64,000 bases of DNA from positions 44,950,001 to 45,014,000 of the forward strand of contig CM097886.1 of the NCBI GenBank assembly GCA_044892525.1. Reading direction: 5' to 3'. The position numbers and the translations under genes were made by a program. Shown here one piece after another: positions 27,618 to 64,000 of this stretch (position 1 is its first letter; every line of letters begins with the position of its first letter). The notes under the pieces are model-generated. The model worked only from the letters and a program-made list of their open reading frames with translations, was not told the DNA's origin and did not search any database. This DNA comes from Schmidtea polychroa (Eukaryota).

Positions 27618-28455
27618 ATTTATGGGTCTTATTCTAGAATTCAATAATTGTTTAGAATATACTCCATTTCGTTCTCTGTAAACTATATCGCAAAATTTGC
27701 GTTTGTTTAATTAAAAAATTATATTTTTATTGTTTTTTAATTAATTATTTATGTTACTTCGAAATTAAATTTGTTTGAGTTTTATTTTTCAAGTCGGTTC
27801 CCTCTGACTCCTCGTGTTCTTATTTAAACAAATAAATCGAAATCCAACACAAAATAACTTTATTCTAATTCAATCAAATTACAATTTGTCACTTTATTTG
27901 CACCTTTCGCTCAATATAAATATTGCTCACTAAGGTAGATAACTCAAGGGGCAGTCACCTTTTCTGGTACGAGAATTACACTTGTTTTCCAATTACTATA
28001 TTTCGTTTTCCTATCACTGATTGCCTGATTCTCTGAGTTTCTCTTTGTTTCTTCGACCAACTGGCGACTTGTCTGTTTCTGAGCTCTCTTTTTATATTGT
28101 TTTTCAGGGGCCAATTATCTACAGAATTGCAATTAATTATTTCCCGGAATCATAGATAAACATTTGAGGGTTTCCAAATTATTTTAATTTGTTTCTTCTA
28201 GATTCGCACTCGGAATATTCCCTCGTTTATTTGATCGATCGGGTCTCATTGGGTTTTGGGTTTCCTTTAGCCATCTGGTTTCCCATGGACTCGGGCTTCC
28301 ATTGGCTCGAGCTTTCCATTACAGATTAATTAATTTTAATTAATTTGCTTTTTTGCATTAACTTTCTTTGTGAACCCCTTATTAAATTTTCATTATAATT
28401 TCTGACCTTGCCTATCAATTTGGCGTTCAACCATACCCGATACCCCGTTCAATAT

Positions 28456-29092
28456 TGTTGGGTTATTGAGTCGTTGGTGAAATTTAAATTTAATGAATTA
28501 TTTCTCTGACTCCAACCGTGCCTTTTGTTGACCCACAAATAACAATTAACACTGGAAACTTTATTGAATATCACAAATATTTTCACAATGATACAATTGA
28601 CTCAACAAGCTAACTACCGATTATACAGTACTTATTATAACACTATGGTGAGAAGAATAGCATACGCGTATAAGCTTGATTTGACAAATCTCTCACAACT
28701 GAGTATAAAAATTGGTATTTTAACTGGATGTTTTCTAGTTTAACTTGGATTTACTCGCCGAAATTTTGAATTGATTAGATAGAATTGATTATCACAATTG
28801 ATTATGTCTCAAACATTTTTATTTCTCATTCCAATAACTTTTTCAAATAGGAATTTGTTTATATTTAATTGTGTTATTATTAGACTTCGCAAATTAGATA
28901 TAAATTTGACTGATAAGAATCACTTGAAAAAAGCCATGCCAAAAATTTGTGAATTAGTACTAATTAGTACTGACCTTTGCCTTTGTTTTCTTGTCTGATT
29001 TCTTTTGTTTCATTCCTCTTTCTAATTTCCCATTCATTTTTATTTCCATTCTATTCTCCGGGTTCCCCTAAATCGTCCCGTTTGTCGTGACA
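28456..29092 (-). mobile_element. LTR relic, family B, copy 1
   Basis: Minus strand starts TGTCACGACAAACGGGACG and ends CCCAACA, with AATAAA ~105 nt before the end. It shares blocks (TGTTGGGTTATTGAGT, TCTGACTCCAA.CGTG, CCACAAATAACA, AATTAGTACTGACCTT) with 32849-33774. Confidence 0.6.
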
Positions 29093-29949
29093 ATTTTCCC
29101 CAAGTAATTTTATTTATTTATTCATAAATTTGTTATTTAGGTATCCTAAACAATATTGATTTTTGATTTTTAGTAAGTTTTAATTAATTTTACCAATATT
29201 TGTTATGCCTTCCATTTATATATATATATTTTCTCATTTTAGTACTAACCCCAACAATTTTATTTTTACTGAAATTAATTAACCTTTGCACCTTTGTCTT
29301 GACGGACTTTTGTGATAATTTGAATTCCATTTATACATCTCATTAAATTTTTCGAAATGCAGAAAATGTAAACACATTGAAAACATTTTAGAAGTAAATC
29401 TTTCTGATGTACGCTATTCGATATTCGAATGGAAACTATATTGGAAATTCTATTATGATTAGATGATACTAAAATTTGTTTCTTACCACTTTATTCTGGC
29501 ATATATCCATTTTCTTGTCACAGAAGATTGCAATTGAAGAGGTTAGAAATTGCAATTATCAGTGGCTTGTTCAATATATTTTGAGATATCATTTTTACTA
29601 AACTTATTTTGATATTAGATAAATCTTCAGTAAAATATTTCTTAGTTATCAATAAAGTAGAATACTTTTGGGAACAGTTCTACTCTTGAATGAGTATATA
29701 CCAACGTCATATACATAATCTTATGAAGTGGAGCAAATCAAACAAGGTTTTAAAATCTTTCCCCATTAAGGTACCATCTATTGTACAAAGATAAAAATAA
29801 TCTACTTTTATTGTTTATAGGAAAATTAAACTCTTATTTGTAATTTTCTATTAGAACTGAACGATAAAGTTTTATTAAATTCAGCAATTTTTATTTCAAA
29901 ACCTTATTCAAATAACCCTAATTTTTTTGCAACAATTACACCTCCACTC

Positions 29950-32239: not shown

Positions 32240-32848
32240 AAATAATAACTAAATTAATAACTATTAGTTCAACTATTCAACGATTTGATGATGATTTGTT
32301 TACATCGACAGGATCGCTAATTGGCATGACGGATTTGTAATAAAGCTTAATTATTTCATTTCGTTTGGAATCACAATTGAATGTTTGAAATTTATTTAAT
32401 GTGAATGGATTGCCATTCATACAAATCGGTATTCTTGAAATAAATAAAAACTCACAACTTATCTAGTACTTATTTGAACAAAATTGGATTAATAATTTAT
32501 CAAACCGTTTGTACACACTCGGTACTGTGATCAATTCCCTATGGAACATCATAACCTTGTTTACCACATCCCTTACAAAGTAAGAAAGATAGATATTTAT
32601 TGGATGTTTATTGAAATAGATATTTGTAATACTAAGCAAAAATGCAGTAGAATTAGGCACTAAAATATTGTTCATTACAAATGGCTCTATAAGAAATTAT
32701 TTGAAATGAACTTTTTTATATTTTTCACGCCTGATCTTAGGAATTAAATATAGAAAATCCATCTTCAGAAAAATAAATGTTTAAAAATTTGATTTAAATT
32801 ACGGTTTCAGATAATTCATTTCTCAGGTATGATTCTAGAATTGGCTAT

Positions 32849-33774
32849 TGTTGGGTTATTGAGTTGGTGATAAATTTAAATGTTACTCTGACTCCAAGCG
32901 TGTCTTTGACTGATCCACAAATAACACTTGACAACAGAAATCTTTATTGATAATCACAAATAACTTTCACTTTACACTGACAATAAATTCAACACTTGGG
33001 CTTGGTGACTATACAAGGCTTATTACAACACTCAGTGAGGAACAGCACTTGCGTATAACACCGGATTAAAAGATCACAAATTACTGATTTATCAACTGGG
33101 ACTTTGAGCTGGTTGTTTTCTTTGACCTTCACAAGTTTATTCAAATAATCAAGTAACTTCTTTTCGTTTTATTTTTCAGCTAATTCTTTTATTCAAATCT
33201 TTTCCAACAATTATTCTTCACAATTATTTTCTTTACAATTTTTTTTCACAATCGTTTCTCCAACAACGTTTCGTCCAACGTTGTCTAATTTTTCTCCAAT
33301 AATTTTATCTCTCAAATCGTCTCACAAATTGTCTCTACCAAATTGTCTTAATTTCACGTCAGTTTTTGTCTCTAATTTTGGGCTCATTTTGTCTCTACTA
33401 GTTTCTCTTTATATAGTTTGCTTCTATTGTGGCACTCAAAATAATCAAGTGTTTTACCACTTTTTTCTCCTGCTTTCCCCATCTGTTCCATTTTTATCTC
33501 CGACGGCTGTCAAGCTATTTTCCCTCTTTCCTTTTTTGTTTAACCGCCTTCTCCCAGCAATTACGTTATCACTGGCAGGCTGTTGAGATAAGAATATTGT
33601 TGTTTTCTTTTTTCCCGATTCCAAAATTCCTTTTTGTACTAATTAATTAGTACTGACCTTAGTTTTGATTTTCATGTTTGATTTCTTTTGTTTCTCTCCT
33701 CTTTCTCATTTCTCATTTCTTTCTTTCCGCTTTCTTTTCTGAGTTCCCGTAGATCGTCCCGTTTATCGTGGCGA
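32849..33774 (-). mobile_element. LTR relic, family B, copy 2, preceded by a G-rich polypurine tract
   Basis: Homologous ends to 28456-29092. On the minus strand GGGGGGGGGGGTGAAGA (33775-33791) lies immediately upstream of TCGCCACGATAAACGGGACG. Confidence 0.6.
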
Positions 33775-35116
33775 TCTTCACCCCCCCCCCCAGGTAATTT
33801 AATTTATTTCTTTATAAATTATTATTTAGGTGTCCTCAACACTATCCATAAAATAATTATGGTTTCCTATTCGAATTAGGGATTTAGAAATTAGTTCAAT
33901 ATCTCAAATATAATTTATAATGAAACATTGGATAGTATTTCAAAGATTTTTTTTTCAATTATATATTATTTTTCAGTTGCAATAACATTATAATTTGAAG
34001 TATTTAATAAAATTTTTAGAGACTATTTTTTAACTAAAATAATTATTTTTTAAAAAAATCTTTTGTTTTACGATTCCAAAATTTTAATCTTTTATAAACC
34101 CTTCAGTTTTTACCATTAAACTTTATTATTAGTACGTTTATAAAATATTTTTTAAATTTTTTAAATATTATAAATATTTGTACTTACAGTTTCTAAGTTT
34201 TCACATTTTAAATTTTCATACAATTCAGTGCAAAATCTTAGAATATATTTTTCCATAAGTTTATTCTCCTTATATAAAAATCACAAAAAATCTCATGTTT
34301 AAATTTCCTAAAAAAATTACAATGAATCAAGGTGAGATGTTTAATCTCGATAGCAAATGAATCATGTTTACTAGGAAGGGTACATATTTACGTTTTCATT
34401 AATGATTAATTTGTGATTTCTGGAGCGCAGATCAATGGTTATTTATTTCATTTTAACCAATCTTAGTCGACAAAGTTTAAAATCTTCGTTTTATACTCAT
34501 TAAATATATGTAATGGAGTCTTCCATTTTTGCTTATTGGTGAAACAATTGATCTAATGGTTTTTGAATGCCATTTTCTATTATTACTTTTCAATATGCAA
34601 AACATATGATTCTGTATTTTTTGGAATAAAGAAAAAACATTATCATTAAATAATATCATTCAAGATTACAGAAAATGATCCGAAATACAAATACAATGAA
34701 ATAAAAGTTTTTATAATTTAGTATGTAGCTATGGACTTACAGCCGCATTTTAGTACCCCCTTACAACTCAATAATTAAACAAATATTTTCATTAATTATT
34801 TCCTTTTATTTCATTATTTTAATTTAATTAATTAATTATAATTTTATTTCTTTATTTTATTATTTAATTTAATTTATTTTAGTTTAAATTTAAATTATTA
34901 ATTCTTATCAGTAATTCTTATTACTCCTTTTACTAATTTACGCAAACTGAGACAAAAATGTTCAAAATATAAAAGATATATTAGTCAAATTTATTATACA
35001 TTTAATTCTAAAAAAAATCAATAAAAATAAATTTTATAACAAAGATTTATTTAAATAACATCCGGTATATCTTCAGCTGTTTCTTTGAATTGCGATAATG
35101 ATGGACCCGGATCGAA

Positions 35117-43290: not shown

Positions 43291-45813
43291 CACTAGGACG
43301 GCCAGAGCGGTCATTTTGACCGTTAAGCAATTTCATTTTTATTTTGTGAGAAAACGAAAAGGAATTAACGTCTCATATTTTGTGACAATTATTCATTTTT
43401 AGTGAACTTGTTGTGCATATCAAAGCTTCAATTATAGCATTTGTCACGACTGACATAATGAGGCCATCCCCATGGAAGGCCGAACCGGTCAATTTGACCG
43501 GTATCTTGAAACACACAAGAAAGTCACACATAATCATCTTACATACTAGAAAATATAAAACCAAATATAATTTACACACAACCGAAGCATTTAACAGTCA
43601 TTTGGGAATGTTTTCCACAGTAAACTTTACTACATACATGGCATATAGCTCCGGATTTGTTATCACAATGAGGAGCAGTACAAGTTTTTCGCTTCTTTAA
43701 TTTTGGTTGTTCAGAACAGAGTTCACCAGAGATGGGACTTGCTGTTCGACGGCTTTTGAACTCCTCACAAAGAGATGTAGCTAATTCAAAAATAAAATCC
43801 CTTCTTTTTATAGTTGATCCCGTAGCATCTTTGAAAATAACATGAGCGTTGAGAGCTGCTTTATCAAGCAAATCATAGAAAGTAGCGACTGGCCATCTTG
43901 CTGTTGCGGCTTTACTGCTGTATAAACGCAACATGCTATCCGTGGTATCTACAGCTGTCTTATTTTTGTTATAAAAGTGTATCATTTCAGGCTTTCTCTT
44001 TTCGTCAGATCTCACACTAGCAGTAGAATGGAATGTTGACATGACAATGACTTTCTTGTCCGATTTGCCTTGATAGGAAACAGTGACAGTGTTTTGACAC
44101 GATAAATGAGTCGATTCAAAAGAGGCTTTTTCTCCAAGTGAGCTAATGATAAAAAGCGTGAATTTAATTTTACAGTACCAACCAATGTTGTTCGATTTAC
44201 AAGGAGATGTTCAGCTAGTGAGAGACTTGTAAAGAAATTGTCAGTGCAGACATTGTATCCTTTATTGAAAAATGGCTCCATTAGTTTCCTGACTACAAAA
44301 TCACCCAGCCGTAATCCACAGCGTTCGTTTCTATCGTGAGCCCCTAAATATGGCATTTGATTGATGACAAATTTGGTTTTGACATCACTGAGAATCCAGT
44401 ATTTGATACCGAATTTATCAGGCTTATTTGGCATAAATTGGATGAAGCAACACCTATTTTTTAGCGGCAAAAGTTGCTCGTCGACAGTAAGGAAGGGATT
44501 AGGAGTATAAACTTGAAGACAGTTTGAAACAAAAGTCAAATATTTCACGAAAATGGGCATATTTATCTTGTTCTACTCTTTGACGTCGAGAACATTGTTC
44601 ATCAAAACGAAGAAAGCGCAGTATCTCACGGAAACGGTTCCGAGACATGACTTCTCTGAAGTAAGGAGATCCAAATTGAGATGACCAGATTGAATTGATA
44701 GAATGTCGGCGAAAGCCTAACACACCACGGAGATACAGCAATCCAAGAAAAGCATCTAATTCTTGTAGACTGATACACCAGTCTGACGAAGCTTCTTTTC
44801 CTTTCATAATTGTGTATTTTTGAATTAACTTCAGCATTCCCTCAGAGACTATCAAGCGCCAAGCGCTCAGGGGTGAGTCAATTTTGCGCTTTGCAAAAGC
44901 TTTCACACCAGGTGTTCCACTAAAAATATTGTGCGCAGGGAATCTGCCAACACTAATAGCGTGATTGTTTTCTACTCGATTCCAAAGAGTGCCATTCCTG
45001 CTAGATAAAAGCTGATTTTCTAATGAAGAAATTGAGCTATTGACTGACTCATTGTCACTTTCTAACGAACTTCCATTATCATCAGAGTTCCATTCATGTA
45101 ACTCTTCGTCAGAATCATTTCTTTCGGGCTCATCATCACTTCCCATAGGCTGATCTTCATCTTCGGAGAGAGCAGCGTCAATATTCCATAGCTTCTGTAA
45201 AGCACGTTGAGCAGCAATTCTTTTAGTTGGCATATTTGATTCTAAAATAATGATAAAAACTCCGTCAGTAAAATAAGAAACGTCAAATTTATTATTGGAT
45301 TCTAATGAAAACACGGTTTTATAATGTTTGTTATCCCAAGAAGTTCAAAGATTTTCTATAATAATTATTAGATATTTTCTTATGACATTTCGTTAAGTTT
45401 TTCGTTTGATTCTTTTAATTTACCAAATTTCAAAACTTAGAACTCTTAATGCTTGCTTAATTACACTTTTAATAAGCACTATCTTTGAATAAAAGCAAGA
45501 GAATATTTATAAACAAGAAATGAAGTATACATACATACCAGTCTGAATAAACGCGAAGACAATGTTTAAAATAGTGTAGCTTTGTGTCAGCTAAACAAAT
45601 ATTTTTATTTCATTGTTGTAAGTAGTTTAATAAATTAACTACTGTTAGAATAAAAATAGTTAAATTTTGAAAGCGTGTTAGTAGCACAAAGAAAGTATTG
45701 CTGAATGAGTTGCATCATAGAAATCTCAGCATGAAAATAAGGAGCATATGTGCACCGGTCAAATTGACCGGTTTGGCCTTCCAAGGTATAAAATATTTCC
45801 GGCCGTCCTAGTG
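43291..45813 (-). mobile_element. piggyBac transposon (PGBD4-like), complete ends, frameshifted transposase
   Basis: TTAA|CACTAGGACGGCC .. GGCCGTCCTAGTG|TTAA. The transposase from ATG 45233 is split over ORFs 44499-45314, 44012-44560 and 43572-44042, with TVDEQL, TDNFFTS, VDTTD and a C-terminal Cys-rich domain. Confidence 0.95.
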
Positions 45814-48763: not shown

Positions 48764-48784
48764 GGGTTAGGGTTAGGGTTAGGG
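48764..48784 (+). repeat. Interstitial telomere-type repeat GGG(TTAGGG)3 (G-quadruplex-competent)
   Basis: Exact GGGTTAGGGTTAGGGTTAGGG. Confidence 0.9.
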
Positions 48785-49656
48785 ACACATTTCTGTAACT
48801 ATAGAATTGGTGAGTCTTAGGTAACCCACATCTTACCCGTTCGTGTCGTTTGCGACGAAACCCAAGATACAATAACTTTTTTAACCATCCGACACCCGTT
48901 GAGCGATCAACGTTGGTGATGTGTCGCATGGGTAAATACTCGCGAGAAGTCAGTGTACATCTGTATTTTTATAATCACCGAGCATTCCAATGGGTTCATG
49001 GACTGCCAATAGAAATTCTGTGCAAGACTTTGGTTAGGTCCCTTTATGTCATGTTACAATGACGCGAACCTGGCTGATGGCTTGTCCCTCATGCTATGAT
49101 GTGAGACGGCGTTACCCAGCTGGAAAATCTTTCACAAATGCATTTGGATTGGAAGTGAAAATGAACTACATACAAGTTTATTAATGTATAAGGACAACAC
49201 TAAAGTGACTATCAGATATGTAAATCAAGAAAAGTTGAGTGTCCAGGGATTCGAACTAAATTGATAACTAAGTACTAAACGAAAGAATCGTATATTAATT
49301 TCGATTAAAAGTCAGAAATTTTGATCCTTCTGTTGGGCTGAGCCGAAGGGTAGCTGGGAGATTAGGTCAAATGTACTAAAGTAAAATAAAGAAATAAAAT
49401 AAACAAAGTTACGAACAAAATAGAATAGAACATAAGAAAAACAATAATTAGAAAATAGGAATTAAAACAAAAAAATATAAAAATAAGAAAAATTAAAATA
49501 GGACAATAGAATGACGAAAAATAACGTAAAATATATTAGATAATAAGGAAATTAAGGAAAATAAATAAAAACATAATTTTAATAAAGAAAATAGGAAGAA
49601 ATAACCCAAAAACAAGGAAAATAAATTAAATTAATAAAATAAGGCGGTATTCAATT

Positions 49657-49693
49657 CTGATTGGTCCGCGTAAATAGAAAACTAATATATAAG
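49657..49693 (+). promoter_or_regulatory. LTR promoter: inverted CCAAT/Y-box (CTGATTGGTC) and TATA box (TATATAAG, 49686)
   Basis: Consensus motifs just after an A-rich U3-like tract, followed by an ATG-free ~185-nt stretch ending at the donor G|GTAAGG (49892). Confidence 0.5.
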
Positions 49694-51962
49694 CAGACAT
49701 TAAAATCATTATAATTACCGTTAATTCAACAACTACTATAGAACTAGCGATTCACAGCAACAGACACTGACTTACAGGATCATCACAAGGACTATTCCAA
49801 GACTCAAGAAACTTCATCTAAATCTATATTCGATTCTAGTATTAATTAATTCTACTTAGTACTTTTCGACTCAGCCTATTTGAAACACTCGGTAAGGATT
49901 TTTGGATTTCTTATTTTGAATTTATAAGTAATGGTATAATCTAATTATAATTTAAATTTAAAGATCTTACCTTTTCTTTTCGTTTGATTTCAAGCATGTT
50001 ATTTAATTTAATGATATGGTTATTTAATAATAAATGATTTACTTTCTAGGAATTATTGATTTTCCTTTGATGAATTATTTTTATGAGTTATTATTATGTT
50101 AATTAAATTTTTGAGGAACGTGGCGTTGAGATACTCTATGTCATGGTGTGAGGTGCCTTCGGGAGCTCCACCGGTGGACATAGGGTATTTGAATCACGCA
50201 GCTAGATTGGGCCGAAATGTGAGGGCTTCTTCACGGGTCCAATCGCTGAAGGTGCGACCAAAATCTATAGGCAAATTGTGGCAGAAAATTGATAGTCAGA
50301 TAGTGATTGAAAACAAAGATATGTAATAAATGAATCGGAGGATTCTTAGGTATTCGCGCAGTGATTGAGGGCGTCACACCATCGTCTCCAGATATCGTTT
50401 CCACTAAGCCAAATTTTCTCTATCATCGATGTAAGTTGTGTGTCAAACAATCGTTCGGACATTAGTGGGGCTATATGTGATATATCTTCGATGTTCATGC
50501 TTGCGCTCGGAACCTATTCCTACAAATTTTCGGCCTATGACCTTTTGAACTGTTATTTCTTTCATCTAAAAGTTCTCTTGAAGACATAGTCGCAAGGAAG
50601 CTCAAAGTAGATTGCTTCAGATAATTATTAGGATTATTCAAAATGACTGTTTACGAATAGATTGTAGAACCACGTAAAATGATTTATTTCAGATAATTAT
50701 TAGAATTTCATAAAACGAGTTTGTTCCAAATAAAATTTTTAATTACATAAAATAATTTACTTCAATTAATTTTTTAGAATTATATAAAAATATTTACTTC
50801 AACCAATTTTCATAATTACATAAATGATTGGCATCAAATAATTCGAAATGAAAAATGCAACTAAGTCGAGCCAAGAAAAATATGTATATTTTTTTTTAGT
50901 TAGCCTGATGAGTCTTGTTACTTAAATGTAAAATTCCCGTATTTCATGAAGTTGGAAATCCAGCGGGATAGGTAGAAAATCTCCAGAATTTCAGGAACAG
51001 ATCGATAAATCGCATTTGAGAGGTTAAAAAGAAATCCACCCTTGGAGCAAATTATATCCAACATTTACGACATAGAGAATCGTAATTTCTTCCAATGTTT
51101 CCGTGAGAATTATTAGGCCATCAGCAGGTGCAGGGGAATTGTGAGCAATTACGCAGTAGATAGTAACCAGAGAATATGCCAGCATGCAAACATTGAAGAA
51201 CCTCCATTAGTAGTTACGAGTAGAGATAAGTGTGTGAAGTCGCAACTCGCATGCGTCACACATGTTCAAACACACTATAGCAGCCAATCGCAGGGTGTAA
51301 AGTTACACTAACCTTTACTCATAGAAAATCAGGCCGAACGTGTCAGATGGAGTTTTCCGTTATCTAATTAAACCACTGACCGGCATTAGATTTCATCGCT
51401 CGGGATGGATAGTCAACCATCAGGCTGATATTTTGCTTATCTACTTAGTAGGATTTGCTCTGCTACTTTCTCACATCGATACAATTTTCCGTTATCACAA
51501 ATAAATAATCAAAAAATTAAATAACTTTCCGTTCATCATAAACGAACTATTTAAAGGAAATTATGGACCTCCCTTTACCGTAAGTACTTAATCGACCCCG
51601 GTACATGATACACGCATCGAAATCACTCATTTGGGGGGAAAAATCAACAATTTCACTCGATTCTCTGCAAACGTGAATTAGTGACTTCAAGCGGATTAAA
51701 TAAATAATAATTTTCATCGACCGAGAATTTCTCTCACTAGTGGTAATGTCTCCCTTTCCTTGTGCGAAATCTGGCTTGATCGATTTATCTTCTTATAATT
51801 AAAGACCCAAAAGGTATGAGGATCCATCGTGCAGTAGAATCTTGTTGACCGGTAAACCCATAATTTTGTCTATGATCAGTAGAGTATGAGTGTGGTCAGA
51901 TGGCGACACTCTCGTTGTTTTAATCTATTTTCATTTTTCATTTTTCTTCACAGTCACTCAAA

Positions 51963-52706
51963 ATGTTGCCCAATTCCACAACCATTCTCAGACCTTGTTT
52001 TTCTTGCTCCGACAAGAATTCGATCATCAAAGATCTCCAGGCCCAAATCGGGAAGTATAAAAGAAAAATAGATGAGTTAGAGGGGACATGGTTTAGTCCC
52101 ACCCGGATGAAGGAGGCTCAGAAGAAGCTGCACCGAAGCGAGCACTGTCGAGACGCGTTAATTTCGGAGAGTCGGGCGCAGAGGAGCCTAATAAAAGAGC
52201 AGTCGGAGGCGCTACACAAATTATACGTCCAGGCAGCAACTACAAGGAAGATCGCGAAGATCCCAATTAATGAAGCCAGTAATCTTTTCCCAGCACATCA
52301 TGATATCTCTGGCGGGTCTTCATCTCCAGTCGGAAAGTCCTGCCATGGGTGCGTGGAGACCGAGCTCTCTCCCAGAAGTCAAGACGTCGTATTCACCGGA
52401 ACTAGTAAGGTACCGTCAAGCACCGCATCTTCCTCAAGAGTGCAAATACCGACCGCTTCAAAACCTAAACGTCGGCAATTGTCACGCGCCGAACGAAAAC
52501 GAAAGCAACGCGAGCGGGCTTCCGTCAAACAGATTTTACCATCAATCGCCACCCCAGTCGAGGGCAGCAGTAATTCAGCAGTCGTCGATCTAACAACCGG
52601 AATCTCAGGGCGAGTCATCTCCGCTACCGGGGTGTCATGGGAAGAAAATGCCGCCGAATTCTTCGATTTAAACGAGTTACTCGCCGACTCGGAGTGGGAA
52701 AAATGA
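51963..52706 (+). CDS. LTR-encoded 247-aa protein: CxxC + coiled coil, basic NLS-like tract, acidic-aromatic C-terminus (transactivator-like)
   Basis: Acceptor TTTTTCTTCACAG ends 10 nt before the ATG; KPKRRQLSRAERKRKQRER; WEENAAEFFDLNELLADSEWEK; AATAAA at 52842. A homolog exists at 4620-5268. Confidence 0.75.
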   Translation: MLPNSTTILRPCFSCSDKNSIIKDLQAQIGKYKRKIDELEGTWFSPTRMKEAQKKLHRSEHCRDALISESRAQRSLIKEQSEALHKLYVQAATTRKIAKIPINEASNLFPAHHDISGGSSSPVGKSCHGCVETELSPRSQDVVFTGTSKVPSSTASSSRVQIPTASKPKRRQLSRAERKRKQRERASVKQILPSIATPVEGSSNSAVVDLTTGISGRVISATGVSWEENAAEFFDLNELLADSEWEK

Positions 52707-52841
52707 GAACTTCCCCGTAAAATGGCTTCATCCTCTAGAGGGACTTGAACATCTACTGATAACATTTTCTATCTTTGTGTTTCCTTGTTCTTGTAAATTG
52801 GGTGGTATAAGTTTGTAATATATGTGTATAAAAATTCTCAC

Positions 52842-52900
52842 AATAAACCATTTTTGTCTGCATACGTTTTTTTTGTGTTTATTTTAAGACAGTTGATTCG
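52842..52900 (+). terminator. Polyadenylation signal in the LTR (candidate R/U5 boundary)
   Basis: AATAAA at 52842-52847 followed by a T/GT-rich downstream element. Confidence 0.5.
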
Positions 52901-53276
52901 AAATTGGTAAATAGCATTGAGAGTCGCAAAAAATTAGGAGCATTAGTCAATTGGCAATCCCAGTTAGAAACATGGCGATTGGTGACGGGATAAAAGACGT
53001 AAGTCCTTCTATCGGCAGTCAGGGTTAGGAAGTCGAGGCCTCAGTAAGGAGTAGTCCGAAGGAGATGGCTCACCTGCTTACTGGCGTCTCGCCGACATAG
53101 CACAGTTCCAACGTGAAGCGATTCACGGGTGCTATGTTGGAGTATAGGTTATGTACGGGCCCTGCTCAGCGATGACCGGGATAAAGACGAGTGTAATTGA
53201 TGGGGGCATTCATCCTCTAGACTAAAAATGGTACTAAAGAAGGTCATCCGAGTAGCTACCCGCCAACATAATTTTA

Positions 53277-53294
53277 TGGGGGCTCAGCCGGGAT
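53277..53294 (+). promoter_or_regulatory. Primer-binding site complementary to the 3' end of tRNA-Pro
   Basis: TGGGGGCTCAGCCGGGAT versus the canonical tRNA-Pro PBS TGGGGGCTCGTCCGGGAT (16/18). Confidence 0.85.
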
Positions 53295-53601: not shown

Positions 53602-54087
53602 ATGACGAAATTCGGGGACCAGATACAACAATTAATCAACTTCATAAATATCGAGAATGACTCCCTTAAAACGCTGACACAAAAGAGAGAAAGAATTAAC
53701 ATCATACTACTCCAATCAATCGGACAAACACCAGTCGTCCCCAACCACATGTTATTAGCCACAGGACTAAGTCACCCAGATGGGAAGGTAAACCCGGAAA
53801 CCGTGTATCAATGGTATCAAGAGAGATTGAACCACCCAGCATTAAATCTTGATTATCAACGTATAAAAGACCCCTTAAATACCATATCAGATACAATCGA
53901 GCGGAAAATACAAGAAAAACTGACTCTACTACGAACTTGTTTTGCTTGTAAACTTCGTCCTATTCGCGTACTGTTTTTGCCGTGTGGACACCTCAGTCAC
54001 TGCGAAGAATGTGTGAACGATTTAAAACGATGTACGGTATGTAGGCATGAGATAAAAGAAACTCATATGGTTTATTATGGTGAATAA
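53602..54087 (+). CDS. 161-aa protein with a C-terminal IAP/MIB/MYLIP-type C3HC4 RING (putative E3 ligase), inside the retroelement leader
   Basis: CFAC-x11-CGH-x3-CEEC-x6-CTVCR..I..THMVYYGE. Acceptor TTTTTTATATAG is 2 nt before the ATG; AATAAA signals at ~54084, ~54147 and ~54205. No BIR motif. Confidence 0.88.
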   Translation: MTKFGDQIQQLINFINIENDSLKTLTQKRERINIILLQSIGQTPVVPNHMLLATGLSHPDGKVNPETVYQWYQERLNHPALNLDYQRIKDPLNTISDTIERKIQEKLTLLRTCFACKLRPIRVLFLPCGHLSHCEECVNDLKRCTVCRHEIKETHMVYYGE

Positions 54088-54799: not shown

Positions 54800-56169
54800 G
54801 TAAAGGCCTAGAAAAGCGAGAGATAGCAGTTAAGCTACAATGAGCTAATATCTGAATTAATAGAGAAAGGGAATATTAAAGCTAGCTAGAAACAAATTGA
54901 ATGTAATTACGAAAATTGGAGTTTAGAGAGGAAATAAACGAGCTCGTGGAAAAGATAATAAGATTATAATGAAAAAGGAAAGGGAAGAAGGAAACGAATT
55001 AAAGAGATAATGGAAAATAAAGAATAGGCGAAACGATGATAATGAGTAAAGAGGAAAGTAACCAACTAATTAAAGGGATCCCAGTGAAGTAGAGAAACTC
55101 TACGGAATATTTTTTTTTTGGTTAAACCGGGAAAATGCATTTTATTGGTTCCAGAGTAGAACCGAGTGGAATAATAGTAAATATGAAAAGTAAAATAGCG
55201 ACAACAGCGCAAAAGGATTAGGAAAATGAAAGGGGGGTAATAAGCAGTGACCGACAACGACCTATTCATATTATAAGTGATAAAAATAGATAATTATTGC
55301 GACTCTATAGATAATTGTTACTACCCCATATAGATAATTTAAAATCGACGAAAAATTCGGGCTGATGGGAGATTATAACCCGCGGAAGTAATTGCATAAA
55401 AAATAGGGGAAGCATAAACAGAACCTAAAAGGTGTCTGTGTTTGAATGTTGCAGAAAGAATGATGAAGTCGTGTAAGCAGATGCAACACGAGATCATTTT
55501 TTCATTTTAGATATCAAACCAATCCAGTCAACCAAGACAATCCAGAACCTGCACAAAAGGAATTCGAAGAAATCGACAATCGACCAAGAATAAATCCATT
55601 CAGAACCCGCACCGAGAGACACAGCAACCGGAAGACTCCAGAACGGAAGAAGATACAGATAGCGACATCTCCAACTTCGAACGAATCATCGATATATTCA
55701 ACCTCATAGTATTAGCAGCCATCTGTCAAGGACTAGTAAATCTCCTCAGAATCCCAGTAGCAGATTCATACAGAATACTTATCGAAGGAAACACAATCAG
55801 AACCGAACTCGTCCAATTCAGTAGCCGCTAATTACCAAGAAGCGTAAGAAAGGAATCACGGATAAACCCAATCTTAGATCTTCAAGTAAGCCAGGAGACG
55901 TATTATTTTCAGGAGACGAATTACAACAACTCAAAAGAGGACGATCTATTAAACATCAAAGAGGAATATCACAAGGATCAAGAAGAACCAATCAAGTACC
56001 TATATTTGACCAAGAAAATCTCGGATACACCCCTAGTCGATCTCGAAGCAGAGAAAGTCTGTCCGACATCACTAATAGTTTAGCAACGTCAACCGAGGAA
56101 TTATCAGCCCAAAGTTTAGTCACATCGTTAGACAATTTGAAAGAAACAGACGAATCTAGAACACCAATC

Positions 56170-57594
56170 ATGACGAATGTCGTAAAAACCGACGAGTATA
56201 AAGAGAAGTTCAGAGGAGAACCGTTCAACGGAAATGCAAACAAGTTAGCAACGTTCATAACCAACTTCGAAGTTTATATCGATGTGTGCGGATGGACATC
56301 CGAAGCAGTTAGTAAAAGGATGCCGTTGTTTTTGTGCGATAGCGCATTAGAAGTGTATTTAGAGGCTAAAGAAAGAAATACGAAATTAGATAAATGGGAC
56401 GATATCAAAACATTCCTGAAGAAAACTTTCGGAGCTAGCAAACCAATAAATCAAGCACTCGGCGAACTAGCAAATAGGAAACAAAGAGCAAATGAATCCA
56501 TTACGTTATATGCCAGCGAATTGCGGAGATTGGCAAAGAAAGCAATGAATGGGAAATTACCAGAAGAAAATTTGATCGGTTATTTCATAGAGGGATTACG
56601 CCGAGAAGAAGTAAGAGCATCTGTAGGCTGTCAGATGTGTACAACGTTAGAAGAGGCCATAGATTGGGCTACGAGGTGCGAACTCCACCTCCCAGCACAA
56701 ATGAACATCATGCAAGAGGATGGGAGGATAGCGACAGCCAAAGTAAAAACGGATAATGGAGATAATAACAACCAGGAACCAAAAATGAATCAATTCATAC
56801 CAGGAGCGCATCAAATTTTTAAACCACCACAAGGACGATCAAATGGGAATAATGGTAATCGTAACAACCTGAATAATGAGAACAATTTTAATAATTGACG
56901 AAATATGAACGATAACAAGCAGTGCCGAACATGCGGTAAACCAGGACACTGGGACAGAGATTGCTATAGAAATTCAAATTGTAATCGTTGCGGACGGCGT
57001 GGACATACCGAAAATGTATGCCAATTGCGAGGTTGTTTTAACTGTGGTCAGCCAGGTCACATCTCCAGAGATTGCCGAGAAAGGGGTCAACAACAACGAC
57101 CACCACAGCGAAATAATAATTATATGGCGAATCCGCAACGACAAAGTAACCCTAGCGAAGGAAACCAAATGAACGTTATGCAGGAAATCTCGCAGATGAA
57201 ACAGATGATGCAACAAATGATGAGACCAAGACCAGAATCAGCACCACAACAAACCCAGAATATACGTATGATGAGGAGTACCGAAAATCTCAACAATTAT
57301 GAAGTACATCAACATGTACAAGAATGGCAAAGACTGCAGGCCGAGGAAGAGAGGATAAAACAAGAACGCAACCAACAACGCCAAGAACAACCATTGCGAA
57401 TAAATATGATGAAGTTAGTAAAAGACCTGAAAAGCCAGTATTGCTACAATTACGGGAAAAACCCAAGGGTAGTACCCATGACGGAACCAGAAAAGGTAAA
57501 AGAAACAACAACGGAAATGAAAACAGAATTCAACCACGATTTTAAAAGGAAACCAGAGAATTCAGAAAATATTCTGGAAAAAGATAAAAGATAA
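56170..57594 (+). CDS. gag: Gag: capsid (56170-56898) and nucleocapsid with three CX2CX4HX4C knuckles (56923-~57077), interrupted by one in-frame TGA at 56896
   Basis: PFNGNANKLATFITNFE..W..F..KQRANESITLYASELRRLA..FIEGL; CRTCGKPGHWDRDC, CNRCGRRGHTENVC and CFNCGQPGHISRDC. Both parts are in frame 1. Confidence 0.9.
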
Positions 57595-58360
57595 AATAGA
57601 AAAGAAACATGAAGAAACGGAAATAAGAATAAAAGAGGGAAACAACCAAAACAAGGAGCAAATCAGTCAGTTAAACCACCAAATGCTACAAGAATCGGAA
57701 TCAGAAGAAACAACGATATTCGAAAATAGAAAACTAAAGAGAGTACCTAGGATGAGAAATTTGCGAATCAACATGATGAAAAGGACAAAAGGTACGTCGT
57801 CCTCAGACGAAGACTATGTGAGCAGTTTGGGTGGAGAAATACTACAGCTAAACGAAATAAGCGAACCTCCGAAAGGGGAAATCAAAGAGGAAGAAAGCGA
57901 AAGCGAGATAACCAGTGGAAGTGAAGACGAGGATATCGAAATAAAGTTGAGAAAAGCAAGGGAGGAAGCGATAAAACAGGTAGCCGAAATACTCCCGGTG
58001 GTAGTGAGAAACCAAGAGTTCATCGATGTAATACCATTCAGGCGATTCGTACAAAAAGTGATGAAATTGGAAGGAAACGAGAAAGATTTAATACCAAACG
58101 AGGAAAAATCAATTATAAAAAAGTATATGGAAAAAATGAAGCAGGCCGATACCACGCGGTATGTAATAAAAATCAGAACGAGCAGAGGACTTGAAAGAAT
58201 GTGGATCAAAAGTACAGTCACCGACGAACTTTTCGATTGGATACGAGAACATTTGGGAAGTTCGAGAAAGAAAGAATATCTGTATCAATACCAAGGAGAA
58301 CAGATCAAACCAGATATGCACTTAGTGGGAAATGTAGTGATGGTATGGTGGATGATGTAG
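57521..58360 (+). CDS. Polyprotein segment in frame 2 (acidic region + ubiquitin-like C-terminus), linking gag to the long frame
   Basis: Open from 57521 to the TAG at 58358. Repeats the LRINMMK heptapeptide of the upstream frame. Ends YVIKIRTSRGLERMWIKSTVTDELFDWIREHL..YQYQGEQIKPDMHL. Confidence 0.7.
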   Translation, partial: KQNSTTILKGNQRIQKIFWKKIKDKIEKKHEETEIRIKEGNNQNKEQISQLNHQMLQESESEETTIFENRKLKRVPRMRNLRINMMKRTKGTSSSDEDYVSSLGGEILQLNEISEPPKGEIKEEESESEITSGSEDEDIEIKLRKAREEAIKQVAEILPVVVRNQEFIDVIPFRRFVQKVMKLEGNEKDLIPNEEKSIIKKYMEKMKQADTTRYVIKIRTSRGLERMWIKSTVTDELFDWIREHLGSSRKKEYLYQYQGEQIKPDMHLVGNVVMVWWMM

Positions 58361-61300
58361 TCATGATGTACGATAAAATAATATTACGAGCGGAAGACGA
58401 CACCTCGTTAAGCGAAATGGGTATGTGGGACAATCATCAGATAATCAGGATAGTACCAATGGATGAATTTCGAACAAGAGATATAACATATCAAAAAGAA
58501 ATACGAGACCGGATGAAAACGTTATATCAAAAATCTACAGAAATAATTGAAATCCACCAACAATGGTTAAAAGAAAAGGAACTACAAGGAAAAATCACGA
58601 AACTAAGTACCAGATCCTGCAGACGGACCCCATGGGAAAGAGTGTGGAATGCAGAAAATAAGGAATGGGAAATCCGGAAAGGAATCTTCGTAGAAACAGA
58701 CATTGGTGAGACAGAAAGTGAATCGGAGGAAGAAGAAGAGGAACCTCCAGAATATGAAGAGGAAGGAAGGGGACAGACATCAGATGACGAAAGCGAGACG
58801 GATGTCACATCAGAAAGCGAAAATGAAGCGAGACACATTCATGCAATGAGGAAAAAGGAACGTGAATATGCTGATATGGACGGCGAGGAAGCGACGGAAG
58901 CAAGAGAACGAGAAGAGAGAGAAAGATATAAACAATTAGGCGATATCCTAATAAAGGGAGCGAAGAATCAAAAACGACAAGTAATAACATTAGCTAACTT
59001 CATTTTAAAAATATCGGATAATATCCATTATCTGAGGGAGATAGTAAAAACTATAGAAGAATACCGACAATACAACGAATGGTACCCGGAACAACTGGAG
59101 CAAATTATCGGGAAGTGGCGAAACCATGAGTGGTCACAAGATACCCAAGAGAGATACCGAATCCGAATCAAATACCCAGATAAGAATGTTGAGGAAGTAG
59201 AAGTACACCCAACCATCAAAATCAGGGAATTAAAAAAGAAATTGGCATACGAAACTCCTTTCCATCTACAACTGCAAGGAAAATCACTAGACGATAATGC
59301 AGACGTCGGAATAACACCCATGAGATTGGAAGAGACAAATGTATTAACGATGGCAGAAACGTTGGGGAAACCATTAAAAAGGAAAAGTAAAAGTGACAAA
59401 CCGACAAAAGGCAGTTTGAGTACTCCAAGTCCGAACAAAGCCCCAAGTAAATCTAATGAAACTGAAGAAGTTGAAGAGATTATCCTCGAAGATAGTGACG
59501 ATGAACCAGGAGAAAGATCACCGCTATTAGTAAGATGGCCGACAGGAGCCGAAATGTGGACTAATAACCAGCCATCAACGAGTTATCAACAACCAACGAA
59601 ACTAAACATCAAAGAAATCATCGACAATACTACGGAAACCGAAACGGACGAACAATTCCTGAAGCAAAGAGAACCAACGAAAATAACACCAGAAGGTCAA
59701 ACGGATAAAATAATAGATGAATGGAACGAGTGGCTGAGAAATAACGATAGTTCATTACCCAGAACGGATAACGAAAGAAATCCGAATTACGAAAATACCA
59801 GAGAAGCCGGAACGATGATGGAAAAACGGGCAAAAGGAAGGCCTAAGAAACAAGGAGGAAAGTCTGAGTTCAAAACCAAGGAACAATTAAAGCAAGAACA
59901 AGGGCAAGTTCGATTGGAAAAATTGGATAAAATAGTATGGGATCTAAAGGAAGCCCAACCAACGGTTGAAAGAGGAGAAAAATGGATACGAGAATTGATA
60001 AAAGATATGTTAATAATAACAAACCCACAACTTAGACGCTTGTGGCAACGGAAAGTAGCGAGTGTGGAAGCTAGACAGTTATGGCACACCGTTTCGGGGA
60101 TAATCCCAAAGTTAATCAAAGAGAAAACGAAAACCACCAAAACGGATTGGGATGAAACGAAGAGAGTGATTGAACAGCTCACGACAAATGCAAATGATGA
60201 CGAACATCATCTAGTGGTAATCACTTATTTGACGTATAATTTGATGGGATTAGCGGCAAGAAAAATACCGAATAAACAGTTTGCAAATCACGTGGAAATG
60301 ACCGTTTCAATCATAGAGAATACTATTGAACCACATATTATTCGTGCCGGAGGATGGAAAAGACTTATACAAGCGCCACGAAAAAATGAGCAAGAAAGGT
60401 CGATGCAAGTTAGGTTGAAGAAGTTGTTGAATGAACTAGAATGGGAACTACCCATGAAAGACCCAGCAAGCCGAAAAGCATCGATAAATTCGTTAATGAT
60501 GACTATGATGATATGGATGTTGTGCACAAGTGGAGCAACGGGTTTTACCATCTACGATTGTGATAATATGATAATGAGAGATAAATACTCATTGAGAGAC
60601 ATAGAAGAATGCAGACAAGCATCACCCAACAAATTAGACATAGTAAGAACAAAAGTTACTTACCATGTATACCAAGAATCAGATTTCATTAGAACGCAAG
60701 CAAGGGAATGCGTGGTATCAAAAAAGGTACTCGCATATTACTGTGGACAATATTCGTATTCGACTCTTATACTACCCGGTCTGGATAAAGAAATCGTATC
60801 AATACAACGAGAGGACTGTAAAGAGCTATTTAGAACCGGAGCGCTAAAAATGCATAACGGAGTGACGATTCACGGACAAACTGGAATGATTAAAACCGAA
60901 AGCGTTTACGTATCCGGAAAAGTAAAATCATCAGATGGGTCATGTAACGGAGGTACGTATACGATCCGAGGCGAGGTAATATCGGGAGTAGTAGTAATCG
61001 AGTCCTATACGGTTGAACTAAAGGAATACGAAGCGCAATTTGACGCAAATAATTACCAAATGAAGACCAACCCAGCGTGTAGAGCTACAGAAAACGTATG
61101 CAGGACAGGAGTATCAACTATAATCTATGAAGCTAATACCCAAAAATGCCGACTCCAACTGTTAAAAAGTGCTTTGTTCAATGAAGTAAAAGGAGAAATT
61201 TATGAGAACGAGAACGACGAGGATGGAAACGACAGAGTGAGAATGCGAAATGGAAAACCAATGCCACCATCTCCCAGAGAAAAAAGACTCTCAACGCAGA

Positions 61301-64000
61301 AAACACCAACAGCGTTAATTACCGACGATCCAGATCTAGGTATGAGATTTATCAAAGAAAAAGAAACCACCAAATGCGACAGTATAGTATATAAAACCAA
61401 TTACGCTGGTATCTATATGTCGAGACAAATAATCGATAGAGCAGTGGGAAAGATAGCAACGGAGGACGTAAAACTATACTTATATGCAAATAATAAAATG
61501 GATTTTCTATTTCATCGTGGACAAACGACCTTGCAAAAAGTATATTACGATCTGATACAAAACGATTGTTCATTGAATAAAGAAATACTGAAAACAAAGC
61601 TAGCTATTGCGATAACACACCCAGATAACACGATGCCATCACTCCCATTACCAGATGGACATTTTGGTAGAATGGTAGGAGAAGTGATGTACACATACCA
61701 GTGTACCAAGACGTATGCACGAATGCCAGAAAAATCCATACTACCCGAAAAGAGATGTGCAAACGAATTAGAAATCCGTTATAAAGGACAAAATCGATTC
61801 GTCCAACCAGTCACGAGAATTATGAATCCAGTGGGTTTCTACCCAAATCTCTTTAACTGTTCTAATGCATACGGACCTTTGTATGAAAGACCCGATGGCA
61901 AATGGATGATGTTACCGGGAAAAACCATATCCGAGGAGCCCAAGAAATATGGATTAATAGAACTCGCCACAGAGCTGGATTTCAAACCTATAGACGTGTC
62001 AAACGGTGGTATGTATTCCCCAGAAGATCTAGAAACAGCACGACTTAACGTACTCTTCCCAGCCAGACGAGAATCCATTTTGTCAAATATGGTTACAATA
62101 ACTGGGGGAACAAATTATCAATCAGGCCCGAATTACGAACTGCTATTATCGCCAGACCATTTTCAACAAGCTACGTCAAACATGATGAAAGCCATGTGGG
62201 GAAGATTTTTAGTTTTTGGACAAATGATGGCCGGAATATTGGGGATCATACTCATAATTCAGATAGTCAGAGTAATACTAACACAAATGTTAGCTTGTTT
62301 TGATATATACAAGCGAGAAAAGAAAGTAAATTGGAAAATGATAGTAGGCTTTCTACCATTCCTAGCTAAAACCATGGTGTTACATGGTCACTCAAAGGAC
62401 ATTCACCGAATAAAACGATTAATTAAAATATTAACAAAGATTAAAGGAACCGACGAAGAAGTAGGCAGACGATTCCGGAAAGTAATGTACGATGAAGCAA
62501 CAAGACGACAATTGAAAAAGAATAAGCCAAAATTTTTGGACCGATTTAGAAGTCAATCATCTAACAGCAATAGTGACGACGATGATAACGGGAACGATAA
62601 ATGTATATATCCAAACAGAAACCCAAACGAAAAACCAATGGAAACAGCACCATATTGGGAGAAGGAAAAGACAAACACCTGGATCGCCAATGGAAGCTAT
62701 ATACCGCCAGATATCGTGGGACCACAAGCAGCTTTGACCATGACACAAAATATGTATCCGCAATTACCGAGTCAACCAGGTATGCATTATATGCCAACAC
62801 GACGTACCAAAAGTGTAGATCAAGCAGATGACGTAAGAACAATAGCAGCGATGAGTCTACCTGGAGGTCCAGCAGTAACAGTTATGATTCAAATCAATGG
62901 TAAAGAAACCAATGCTATGATAGACACCGGAGCTAATGTATCAGCGATAGCGATTAATCAAATTCCCAGTAAGCACTGGAAGGATATCGAATCAACAACA
63001 ATCCACATCATAGCATGTAGTAAAGAAACAGTAGACGTGGTCGGAAGATGGTGGACTACATTGAGATACCAGGACAACGAAATTGAAACGTATTTGGCAG
63101 TAATACCAAAACTTAGCGTACCATGCATAATCGGAACGGATCTGATGCCAGAATTATTAAAAGAAGTGGTAATAGACTTAACAACCATGTGTCTAAAGGA
63201 CAAAACCGGTAGAATATGCAAAATGAATGCAGTAATCAGATGTCCAGAAAAAATAATAGTACCAGCGAAATCGCAGATGATTTGTCAGATAAAGGTGGAT
63301 ACGGGTATGGAAGGAGAAGTTATCTTTGAACCAAGCAAGTCATTCGAAAAGCGACGAGAGTTACCACTCGCAAGGGAAATAATCACAATAAACCAAGAAG
63401 GAGTGATACCGCTCAACATCACGAATTTCGAAGAGGAAGACAAAATCATTTATGAGAACGAAAAATTGGGAAGATTGACCCCAATGATGGACATAGAATT
63501 ACCGAAAGTGACCAACGAGATGATCAAAGATGATGAATTATGGACAATAGATAGTATGTTGTTGACGAATGATGAAAAGAAAAAATTGCACCGATTGTTG
63601 GTAGAATATAAAGATATATTCGCCATCTCAGATTTAGATTTGGGTACATGCGATGTTACCCTACATGCAATACCACTCATAGATGAAACTCCAATTGCAC
63701 TAAGACCATACAAGCTAGCAGAAATGCAAAAAGAAATAGCCGAAGCAGAAGTACAAAAGATGCTAGACGCAAAAGTAATCGAACCGAGTTGCTCACCCTG
63801 GCAATTCCCAGTGGTCATGGTAAAAAAGAAAGATGGCACCCAACGATTCTGTATCGATTATCGGAAGTTAAACGCAGTAACCAAGAGAGATACCTATCCA
63901 TTGCCGGACATCAATGAGATGTTATTGATATTGCAAGGGGCAGCATATTTTACTTCTTTAGATCTAAAAAGTGGATACTGGCAGATTAAAGTCAAAGATG
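58195..64000 (+). CDS. pol: Long polyprotein frame (~1935 codons, no stop in window): Ubl domains, Bcl-2-like domain, signal peptide, Env-like glycoprotein, protease, RT (partial)
   Basis: Frame 1 was translated by hand from after TGA 58192-58194 to the window end with no stop; first ATG is at 58345. It is absent from the supplied ORF track, presumably because it lacks a stop. Confidence 0.92.
59980..60372 (+). other. Bcl-2-fold-like domain within the polyprotein
   Basis: RELIKDML ~ Bcl-xL BH4 RELVVDFL; KRVIEQL ~ EQVVNEL; a hydrophobic alpha5 LVVITYLTYNLMGL; IEPHIIRAGGW ~ BH2 LEPWIQENGGW. The NWGR motif is not conserved. Confidence 0.6.
60484..62385 (+). other. env: Chuvirus-like / class III (gB-type) envelope glycoprotein domain with internal signal peptide and TM
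   Basis: Hydrophobic SLMMTMMIWMLCTSGATG then FTIYDC, YYCGQYS, GEVMYTYQC, CANELEIRYKGQNRFVQPVTRI, GGMYSPEDL, LFPARRESIL and TM WGRFLVFGQMMAGILGIILIIQIV. REKR at 61276. Confidence 0.85.
62854..63200 (+). other. Retropepsin aspartic protease domain
   Basis: INGKETNAMIDTGANVSAI (DTG at 62923) and CIIGTDL. Confidence 0.92.
63560..64000 (+). other. Reverse transcriptase N-terminal part (Gypsy type)
   Basis: PIALRPY..EVQKMLDAKVIEPSCSPWQFPVVMVKKKDGTQRFCIDYRKLNAVTKRDTYPLP..SLDLKSGYWQI. Confidence 0.95.

Follow-up and report, generated by a model that had tools for sequence, protein, structure and literature searches.

The stretch analysed here, called the window, comprises 64,000 nucleotides of Schmidtea polychroa (GenBank assembly GCA_044892525.1, contig CM097886.1, positions 44,950,001 to 45,014,000 of the forward strand), and its plus-strand interval 49331-53268 (3938 bp, starting with TGTTGG and ending with CCAACA) is the 5′ long terminal repeat (LTR) of a giant Ty3/Gypsy element of the planarian Burro type. 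Within this LTR, all on the plus strand, lie a Y-box in the form of an inverted CCAAT (ATTGG, 49660-49664), the TATA box TATATAAG (49686-49693), a predicted ATG-free leader exon of 175 nt (49717-49891), a predicted intron of 2062 nt (49892-51953, with the donor CG/GTAAGG at 49892, a pyrimidine tract and an AG ending at 51953) and an open reading frame (ORF) of 247 amino acids (51963-52706). They are followed by AATAAA (52842-52847) with a U/GU-rich tract behind it, which may serve as the poly(A) signal for the ORF mRNA. The first-pass annotation had described the LTR as a transcription unit in its own right, with these signals upstream of the primer-binding site (PBS), and its coordinates all hold. 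It overlooked a conserved RNA hairpin inside the intron and a “micro-intron” near the start of the transcript.

The nature of the repeat, correctly recognised as a real 3.9-kb LTR, is evident from its TG..CA ends, target duplications and near-identical pairs. A search of the genome with the LTR (40 of 2729 candidates were scored) gave 52 matches. About 22 are essentially full length, share the ends and are 75-98% identical, and several of these are arranged as pairs with 20-26 kb between the members. Their flanks fall into three kinds: 5′ (a PBS-like site after the LTR), 3′ (a constant flank before it) and solo. Target duplications of 4 bp occur at 14 solo LTRs and 5 checked pairs, while in six sibling pairs the 5′ and 3′ LTRs are full length and 99.4-99.98% identical. 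In the window element, the PBS-like sequence TGGGGGCTCAGCCGGGA (53277-53293, plus strand) lies 8 nt past the LTR; it resembles a tRNA-Pro primer site. The combined LTR-PBS pattern, with the site 7-9 nt past the LTR, has 647 matches in the genome against 0 in the control.

The 3′ LTR of the window element, 25.3 kb downstream, breaks off at position 1354 of the LTR and has no ORF. Since it differs from the 5′ LTR by a mere 5 mismatches across the retained 1354 positions, this is a truncation, and we rejected the argument that the missing ORF refutes an LTR gene because the loss is local and the sibling pairs are full length. The comparison with 3′ LTRs, proposed earlier as a check, has to be read with care: among 12 of them, 9 carry an intact ORF of normal length, one has lost the stop, one starts at the second Met and one is the truncated LTR of the window element. 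The truncation point falls inside a 72-bp tandem duplication (window 50616-50843), where conservation of the intron is at its lowest.

The ORF is under purifying selection. Every one of the 14 solo LTRs flanked by 4-bp target duplications has it intact, and 141 of the 150 best protein matches in the genome, a sample biased by this choice, are free of stops; the genome holds at least 150 full-length matches, with 6979 first-look candidates. The ratio of nonsynonymous to synonymous substitution rates (dN/dS) over the whole ORF is 0.116 (Nei-Gojobori, 10 representatives of clade A1, dS near 1), being 0.045 in the N-terminal domain, 0.04 in the basic tract and 0.076 in the tail, with linkers at 0.26 and 0.48, and differences in ORF length are whole codons. 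An overlapping plus-strand frame of 107 aa and the minus-strand frames were rejected, as most copies have stops in them. One can still ask whether the 247-aa ORF itself is a decaying or incidental frame with no functional gene, because no homologue was found outside the S. polychroa genome and the transcript was not seen. We consider this extremely improbable: dN/dS of 0.12 at dS near 1 and the whole-codon length changes already contradict it, and homologues of 33-38% identity occupy the same place in other LTRs.

These homologues show how widely the arrangement is spread. Among the first 30 of the 647 LTR-PBS junctions, 13 carry an ORF homologue within the final 1.5 kb of the LTR and 17 have none; of the homologues, 3 are 77-79% identical, 4 are 65-68% and 6 near 33-38% (two of these six frameshifted). 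The clades at 65-68% and 33-38% protein identity share the layout, their DNA being mostly unalignable, and the most distant homologues retain the promoter, donor, acceptor, basic helix and acidic tail. All 26 aligned LTRs of clade A1 preserve the Y-box, TATA box, donor GTAA(G/A), acceptor AG, stop codon and AATAAA, with identity in the middle of the intron going down to 0.2-0.65, and the promoter, donor and acceptor recur in clades A2 and A3. The Y-box is also present in a chimeric LTR of family B and in family C. In a survey of 33 LTRs, 2 of which gave no donor by the search pattern, the predicted spliced leader is without an upstream ATG in 30 of the 31 scored; on the unspliced path, 41 ATGs precede the ORF. 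The RING, MATH and third internal ORFs of the element also begin just past an AG, and the fourth does not. A TATA near 52827 was rejected as not conserved.

Judging from these signals, the LTR promoter probably drives expression of the gene through a spliced mRNA. The conserved promoter, splice signals and selected ORF speak for a transcription unit, which would also allow solo LTRs, with their intact ORF, to express the protein. The polyadenylation signal requires caution, since the window LTR contains 15 AATAAA hexamers and the hexamer alone is weak evidence. Downstream of the ORF it is kept in A1 (6/6) and A2 (3/3), it is not fixed among the 4 A3 LTRs examined, it is absent from family C (0/3), and family B has it at about -90 in 5/7. 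Because of this uneven conservation, and because the internal RING ORF has an AATAAA of its own, the AATAAA at 52842 may end a subgenomic mRNA rather than the repeated region (R) of the element. A later conserved motif, GTAAG.CCTTCTA (52999-53016, plus strand), is donor-like in A1, A2, A3 and C and has lost the GT in family B.

Of all 100-nt blocks in the LTR alignment, the most invariant (81 invariant columns) belongs to a two-hairpin RNA element inside the intron (50115-50258, plus strand), a candidate response, export or packaging element. Its folding z is -5.46, compensatory changes occur in 11 of 48 pairs among 17 distinct sequences, above all 500 shuffles and all slid controls, and 98% of the cells are paired, a value that none of the 500 shuffles reached; Rfam has no match for it. 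Since it is located within the intron, the hairpin would be a structured element restricted to unspliced RNA. Unrelated stable hairpins occupy a similar place in A3 (z -4.38) and in the family B cassette of the chimeric LTR L033 (z -3.73).

The protein has a CxxC motif (residues 12-15), a helix (15-41), an invariant ExTWFxP kink, a second helix (46-98) and a disordered linker, followed in the C-terminal half by a basic helix (167-185), another linker and an acidic-aromatic tail (226-247). AlphaFold models, of low pLDDT (55.5 and 59.9), contain the helices 15-41 and 46-98, the basic helix and a short tail helix, with the remainder disordered. The Arg/Lys-rich helix (52461-52517, plus strand; dN/dS 0.04) is predicted and conserved as an Arg-rich helical motif, is placed at 175-188 by the model and has a related tract in A3. 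The tail (52638-52703, plus strand), with a net charge of -7 over 22 aa, is under selection and contains what we take to be an LxxLL-type motif. All clades retain PCFSC, the ExTWFxP kink and the basic tract, and the acidic-hydrophobic end persists in all but one frameshifted copy. Of the features noticed in the first-pass annotation, the basic tract and the acidic-aromatic tail are real and conserved, as are long helices where it saw a coiled coil. Protein searches covering near and longer lengths gave no homologue, nor did a search of 1.84 billion representatives or of the PDB sequences; Foldseek found no fold match at E 0.001 or better, and the sole Pfam match is a sub-threshold coiled coil. 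Two Atlas matches (0.84 and 0.90) with few shared features were not used.

Families B and C allow one to see which parts of the LTR travel together. Family C, which accounts for 15-16 of the 30 sampled junctions, has LTRs of 1.5-1.6 kb, a body of 14 kb and gag; it lacks the LTR ORF, and no match to pol was found in four stretches tested, two of them complete (examples are L177:6808-8451 and L190-L191). It shares the hairpin, late motif, PBS and leader repeat region with the autonomous elements, retaining the A1-type hairpin at 77% identity, and is without the A-type promoter sequence. LTRs of family B carry two other ORFs, of which ORF2 is weakly related to the 247-aa protein in the region of its TWF kink (52 columns, probability 88%, E 3e-6), and ORF1 was rejected as a relative (probability 0.4%). 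L033 is a chimera, as its first 729 nt match the A2-type LTR L172 at 90%: an A-type promoter (85%) and leader are joined to a family B cassette with another hairpin and other ORFs. It is the complete 3.7-kb 3′ LTR of a neighbouring Burro element 20 kb past the window (L033:2296-5977, minus strand). The combinations in family C and L033 indicate that the protein type tracks the hairpin type and not the promoter; in this comparison, an identity under 0.3 stands for no alignment and is not a measured identity.

The genomic RNA must retain the intron and read past several acceptor-ORF-AATAAA units, and the element therefore needs a switch. We tentatively suggest that the 247-aa protein is an RNA-targeted, Rev/Tat-like regulator favouring full-length element RNA, and we rate this reading of the sequences at somewhat under an even chance. 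Transcription would begin at 49717, splicing from 49891 to 51954 would yield the ATG-free leader, and poly(A) would be added after 52842 in the ORF mRNA. The long helices of the protein would then mediate oligomerisation, the basic helix would bind the intronic hairpin, and the acidic tail would recruit a host factor (for export, elongation or co-activation), as a result of which full-length RNA would be made or exported. Solo LTRs could act as donors of the protein and the ORF-less family C as its users in trans.

Several points weigh against this suggestion. One 175-nt leader is ATG-free by chance with a probability of about 0.10, and the 31 leaders are mutually related; no RNA run showed the transcript or its junction, and the contigs of X1, X2, X5 and X6 are without the 49891/51954 joint. 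Coverage in X6 (leader, hairpin and ORF, the intron middle being uncovered) was not used, as subfamily divergence explains it equally well. None of the nuclear export signal pattern classes is common to A1, A2 and A3, and neither a sequence nor a fold match supplies a function. The shuffle controls for the hairpin take no account of relatedness. Moreover, the hairpin and the ORF are physically linked and would be expected to travel together even without binding, so that linkage alone could explain their association. Since family C has its own version of Gag (43% identical over 164 aa), the hairpin might instead direct packaging, or a host export factor might bind to it directly. Finally, the tail resembles an acidic activation domain, and the foamy virus Tas proteins match the protein in size and layout (PMC3798896).

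The last point brings in a transactivator of the Tas/Bel1 type, in which the basic helix of a helical dimer would bind the promoter DNA of the LTR and the acidic tail would activate transcription. In A1 and A2 the tail, which is selected, has a net charge of -7 to -8 with 7-8 W/F/Y/L residues, and to this extent the earlier view of it as typical of activation domains fits. Also in agreement with DNA binding, ORF1 of family B terminates in PRKRGRPRK, which we take to be AT-hook-like. However, the tail reaches only -4 to -5 in A3 and is missing in ORF2 of family B, an LTR of different ORFs has the A-type promoter too while family C has not kept it, and no homology to known transactivators was found. 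Such a transactivator is the main rival of the RNA-targeted regulator, and we hold it to be somewhat less likely.

The protein may also be an accessory one, acting on the host or the particle as a silencing or apoptosis/ubiquitin adaptor or a nuclear import helper; its basic tract would then be a nuclear localisation signal, and the hairpin a separate packaging or constitutive export element. Short acidic-hydrophobic tails are, we assume, generic protein-binding motifs. Other accessory ORFs of Burro elements are RING, MATH/TRAF, ankyrin and Bcl-2-like modules (PMC6431247), and the RING-BIR product of Burro1 is reported, at second hand, to act on host apoptosis (PMC13465017). Yet this explanation leaves the in-LTR position of the gene, first after the promoter and beside the hairpin, without a reason, and a long conserved helix exceeds what a localisation signal needs. 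It appears to us rather unlikely.

The start of the transcript bears, apart from what the protein does, on how the LTR is divided. A first-exon unit of 25 nt (49717-49741, plus strand) begins at the inferred start site 49717, 31 nt from the TATA box, and is present once in the window LTR and twice in the 3′ LTR of the same element. In the double form, which most copies have, the unit (about 25 nt) precedes a micro-intron of 44-54 nt that runs from a GT donor through a spacer of 20-28 nt to the AG ending a second unit. Among 70 LTR starts, in which paired LTRs are counted twice, 55 have two units, identical to each other in 49; the other 15 comprise single-unit copies and pattern misses. In the LTR start L075, three units follow the TATA box, two identical and one older and diverged. 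The simplest reading of this arrangement is that the micro-intron is spliced from the genomic RNA and then rebuilt at strand transfer, which would place the cap at 49717.

R could be only about 45-70 nt long, with the gene in a 3.5-kb U5 and the micro-intron renewed at each minus-strand transfer; we lean slightly towards this solution. The units are identical within LTRs despite their divergence among elements (19 distinct sequences, with a mean difference of 8.6 of 22 nt), and the spacer ends often carry a partial copy of the first 3-8 nt of the unit, as if the acceptor RNA ended there. In 11 close copies, no site outside homopolymers varies more than the 2-3 nt ahead of the second unit (diversity 0.51-0.55, the mean being 0.029); these bases vary among elements and agree between the two LTRs of a pair. 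Copying of the cap would leave a G at this point, and a G is found there in 10 of 55, which is a weak sign. The late AATAAA, absent from family C, also speaks for a short R. On the other side, the micro-intron hardly varies in length within certain subfamilies (of 16 L008-type LTRs, 15 have 47 nt), as expected if annealing were in register with mismatched ends, and this is compatible with any length of R; by eye, no conserved poly(A) hexamer stands at a suitable distance for a short R, and the duplicated unit was not seen in family C. The alternative is that R measures about 3.1 kb and ends after 52842, close to the 3 kb assumed in the first-pass annotation. It draws on the AATAAA kept in A1 and A2, which is not fixed in A3 and absent from C, and the micro-intron fits a short R as well; it seems to us a real possibility, put at less than even.

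Taken together, the LTRs of Burro elements may be built “inside-out”: a U3 of 390 bp, an R some tens of bases long with a self-renewing micro-intron, and a 3.5-kb U5 with a swappable cassette of hairpin and cognate RNA-binding activator. Thousands of scattered solo LTRs would then be complete regulator genes providing in trans a Rev/Tat-like switch of independent evolution, with gag-only parasites among its users. We think this picture rather unlikely. The micro-intron would in any case preserve in the DNA the start site and a trace of strand transfer, and it bears on how the 3.5-kb strong-stop DNA is handled.

The interior of the element agrees with its assignment to the Burro / GYPSM1 group by the Gypsy order of protease, reverse transcriptase, RNase H, then integrase, the giant size (LTR starts 25.3 kb apart) and the long LTRs. 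It contains a RING ORF, gag, CCHC knuckles, a mononegavirus-type fusion protein in the env position (Pfam, E 5.5e-70), protease, reverse transcriptase, RNase H, integrase, ankyrins and a MATH/TRAF ORF. As in Burro / GYPSM1, env is in frame between the Bcl-2-like region (E 0.044, below the cut-off) and the protease, and ankyrin and MATH/TRAF are present. The start of the coding region gag-(Bcl-2-like)-env-protease-reverse transcriptase occupies 55825-64000 (plus strand), and the gag-pol of this copy is broken by an in-frame stop near 56897 and frame changes near 57.5 and 58.3 kb. BIR and ubiquitin-like domains have no Pfam match in the element; a stretch of the polyprotein at 59150-59370 looks ubiquitin-like by eye and is also without a Pfam match. 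The RING-finger ORF (53602-54087, plus strand), with an acceptor-like AG ahead of its ATG and AATAAA at its stop, may be related to the RING-BIR product of Burro1, the BIR match being absent here; an ORF of this kind directly follows the PBS in A1, A2, A3 and B elements.

A search for a tRNA gene with an end fitting the PBS gave none, the lone pattern match being the PBS of another element. There is no polypurine tract ahead of the 3′ LTRs examined, where a conserved non-purine flank is found instead, so that plus-strand priming may be unusual. This flank, of about 50 nt and foldable, is 93-94% identical among families A, B and C (L032:537-581, and likewise L009, L014, L015, L021, L023, L033 and L190-L193). 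Tandem arrays with shared LTRs (at least 3, at a regular spacing of 26 kb or 13.5 kb) were noticed at C4:46.23-46.29 Mb, C4:69.86-69.91 Mb and C1:77.27-77.32 Mb. Elsewhere in the window, a short run of telomere-like TTAGGG repeats (48765-48785) lies 550 bp upstream of the LTR, and diverged direct repeats (28453-29101 and 32846-33782, 4.4-4.7 kb apart) surround a minus-strand ORF of 316 aa, possibly an older LTR element. Other long ORFs are at 19166-20650 (494 aa) and, on the minus strand, 43572-45344 (212, 186 and 281 aa in staggered frames).

Giant Gypsy-like elements with accessory ORFs were described in planarians as Burro / GYPSM1 (PMC6431247). The window element is of the same size class and has the gag with CCHC knuckles, weak Bcl-2 match, fusion protein between gag and protease, reverse transcriptase-RNase H-integrase, ankyrin, MATH/TRAF and RING modules; it differs in the absent BIR match and the broken polyprotein. 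While the family itself is known, the accessible text of that description cites accessory ORFs and no in-LTR gene, intron or RNA element. In our literature search, no paper turned up that places a gene, a hairpin or a micro-intron within the LTRs of Burro elements, although Grohme 2018, Lee 2026 or the supplements may hold one; we have thus not found a regulator gene of this design described for the group. Gypsy elements normally keep their genes between the LTRs. A selected gene within the LTR survives the formation of solo LTRs, and the usual way by which the host disarms such elements would therefore leave expressible regulator genes behind.

Among viral genes that overlap LTRs, sag of mouse mammary tumour virus (MMTV), nef of human immunodeficiency virus (HIV) and bel2 of foamy viruses are U3 genes whose expression comes from the copy in the 3′ LTR. 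The likeness to sag and nef seen in the first-pass annotation is limited to the presence of the coding sequence in both LTRs: the ORF in the window begins downstream of the inferred start site, at a distance of 2.25 kb, and is hence not a U3 gene. Because it comes with a predicted leader and intron and a candidate poly(A) signal, every LTR, solo ones included, would represent a complete unit. The Tas/Bel1 proteins of foamy viruses (209-308 aa, 249 aa in the bovine virus) dimerise and have acidic activation domains; with them the 247-aa protein shares the size of about 250 aa, the acidic C-terminal region, the basic region and a possible dimer. They differ in that homology was not detected and that Tas is expressed from an internal promoter outside the LTR (PMC3798896).

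Another close parallel is CERV of Cer1 from C. elegans (PMC10309623), a novel nuclear protein that a Gypsy-group element produces from a spliced mRNA. It resembles our protein in the helical hairpin, basic tract and Cys motif, and the two systems have in common the need to export intron-containing genomic RNA and the structured intronic RNA, for which the same source refers to HIV Rev/RRE. Database searches revealed no sequence similarity, and a conserved export-signal pattern is absent in our protein. Besides, CERV is encoded by gag and an ORF between pol and the 492-bp LTR, while the gene in the window lies entirely within the LTR. By analogy, CERV may be regarded as a precedent within Gypsy elements for a Rev-like function (PMC10309623). 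If the protein and hairpin do form a Rev/Tat-like pair, the Burro elements would represent an independent origin of the regulation typical of complex retroviruses, in a second invertebrate Gypsy lineage after Cer1.

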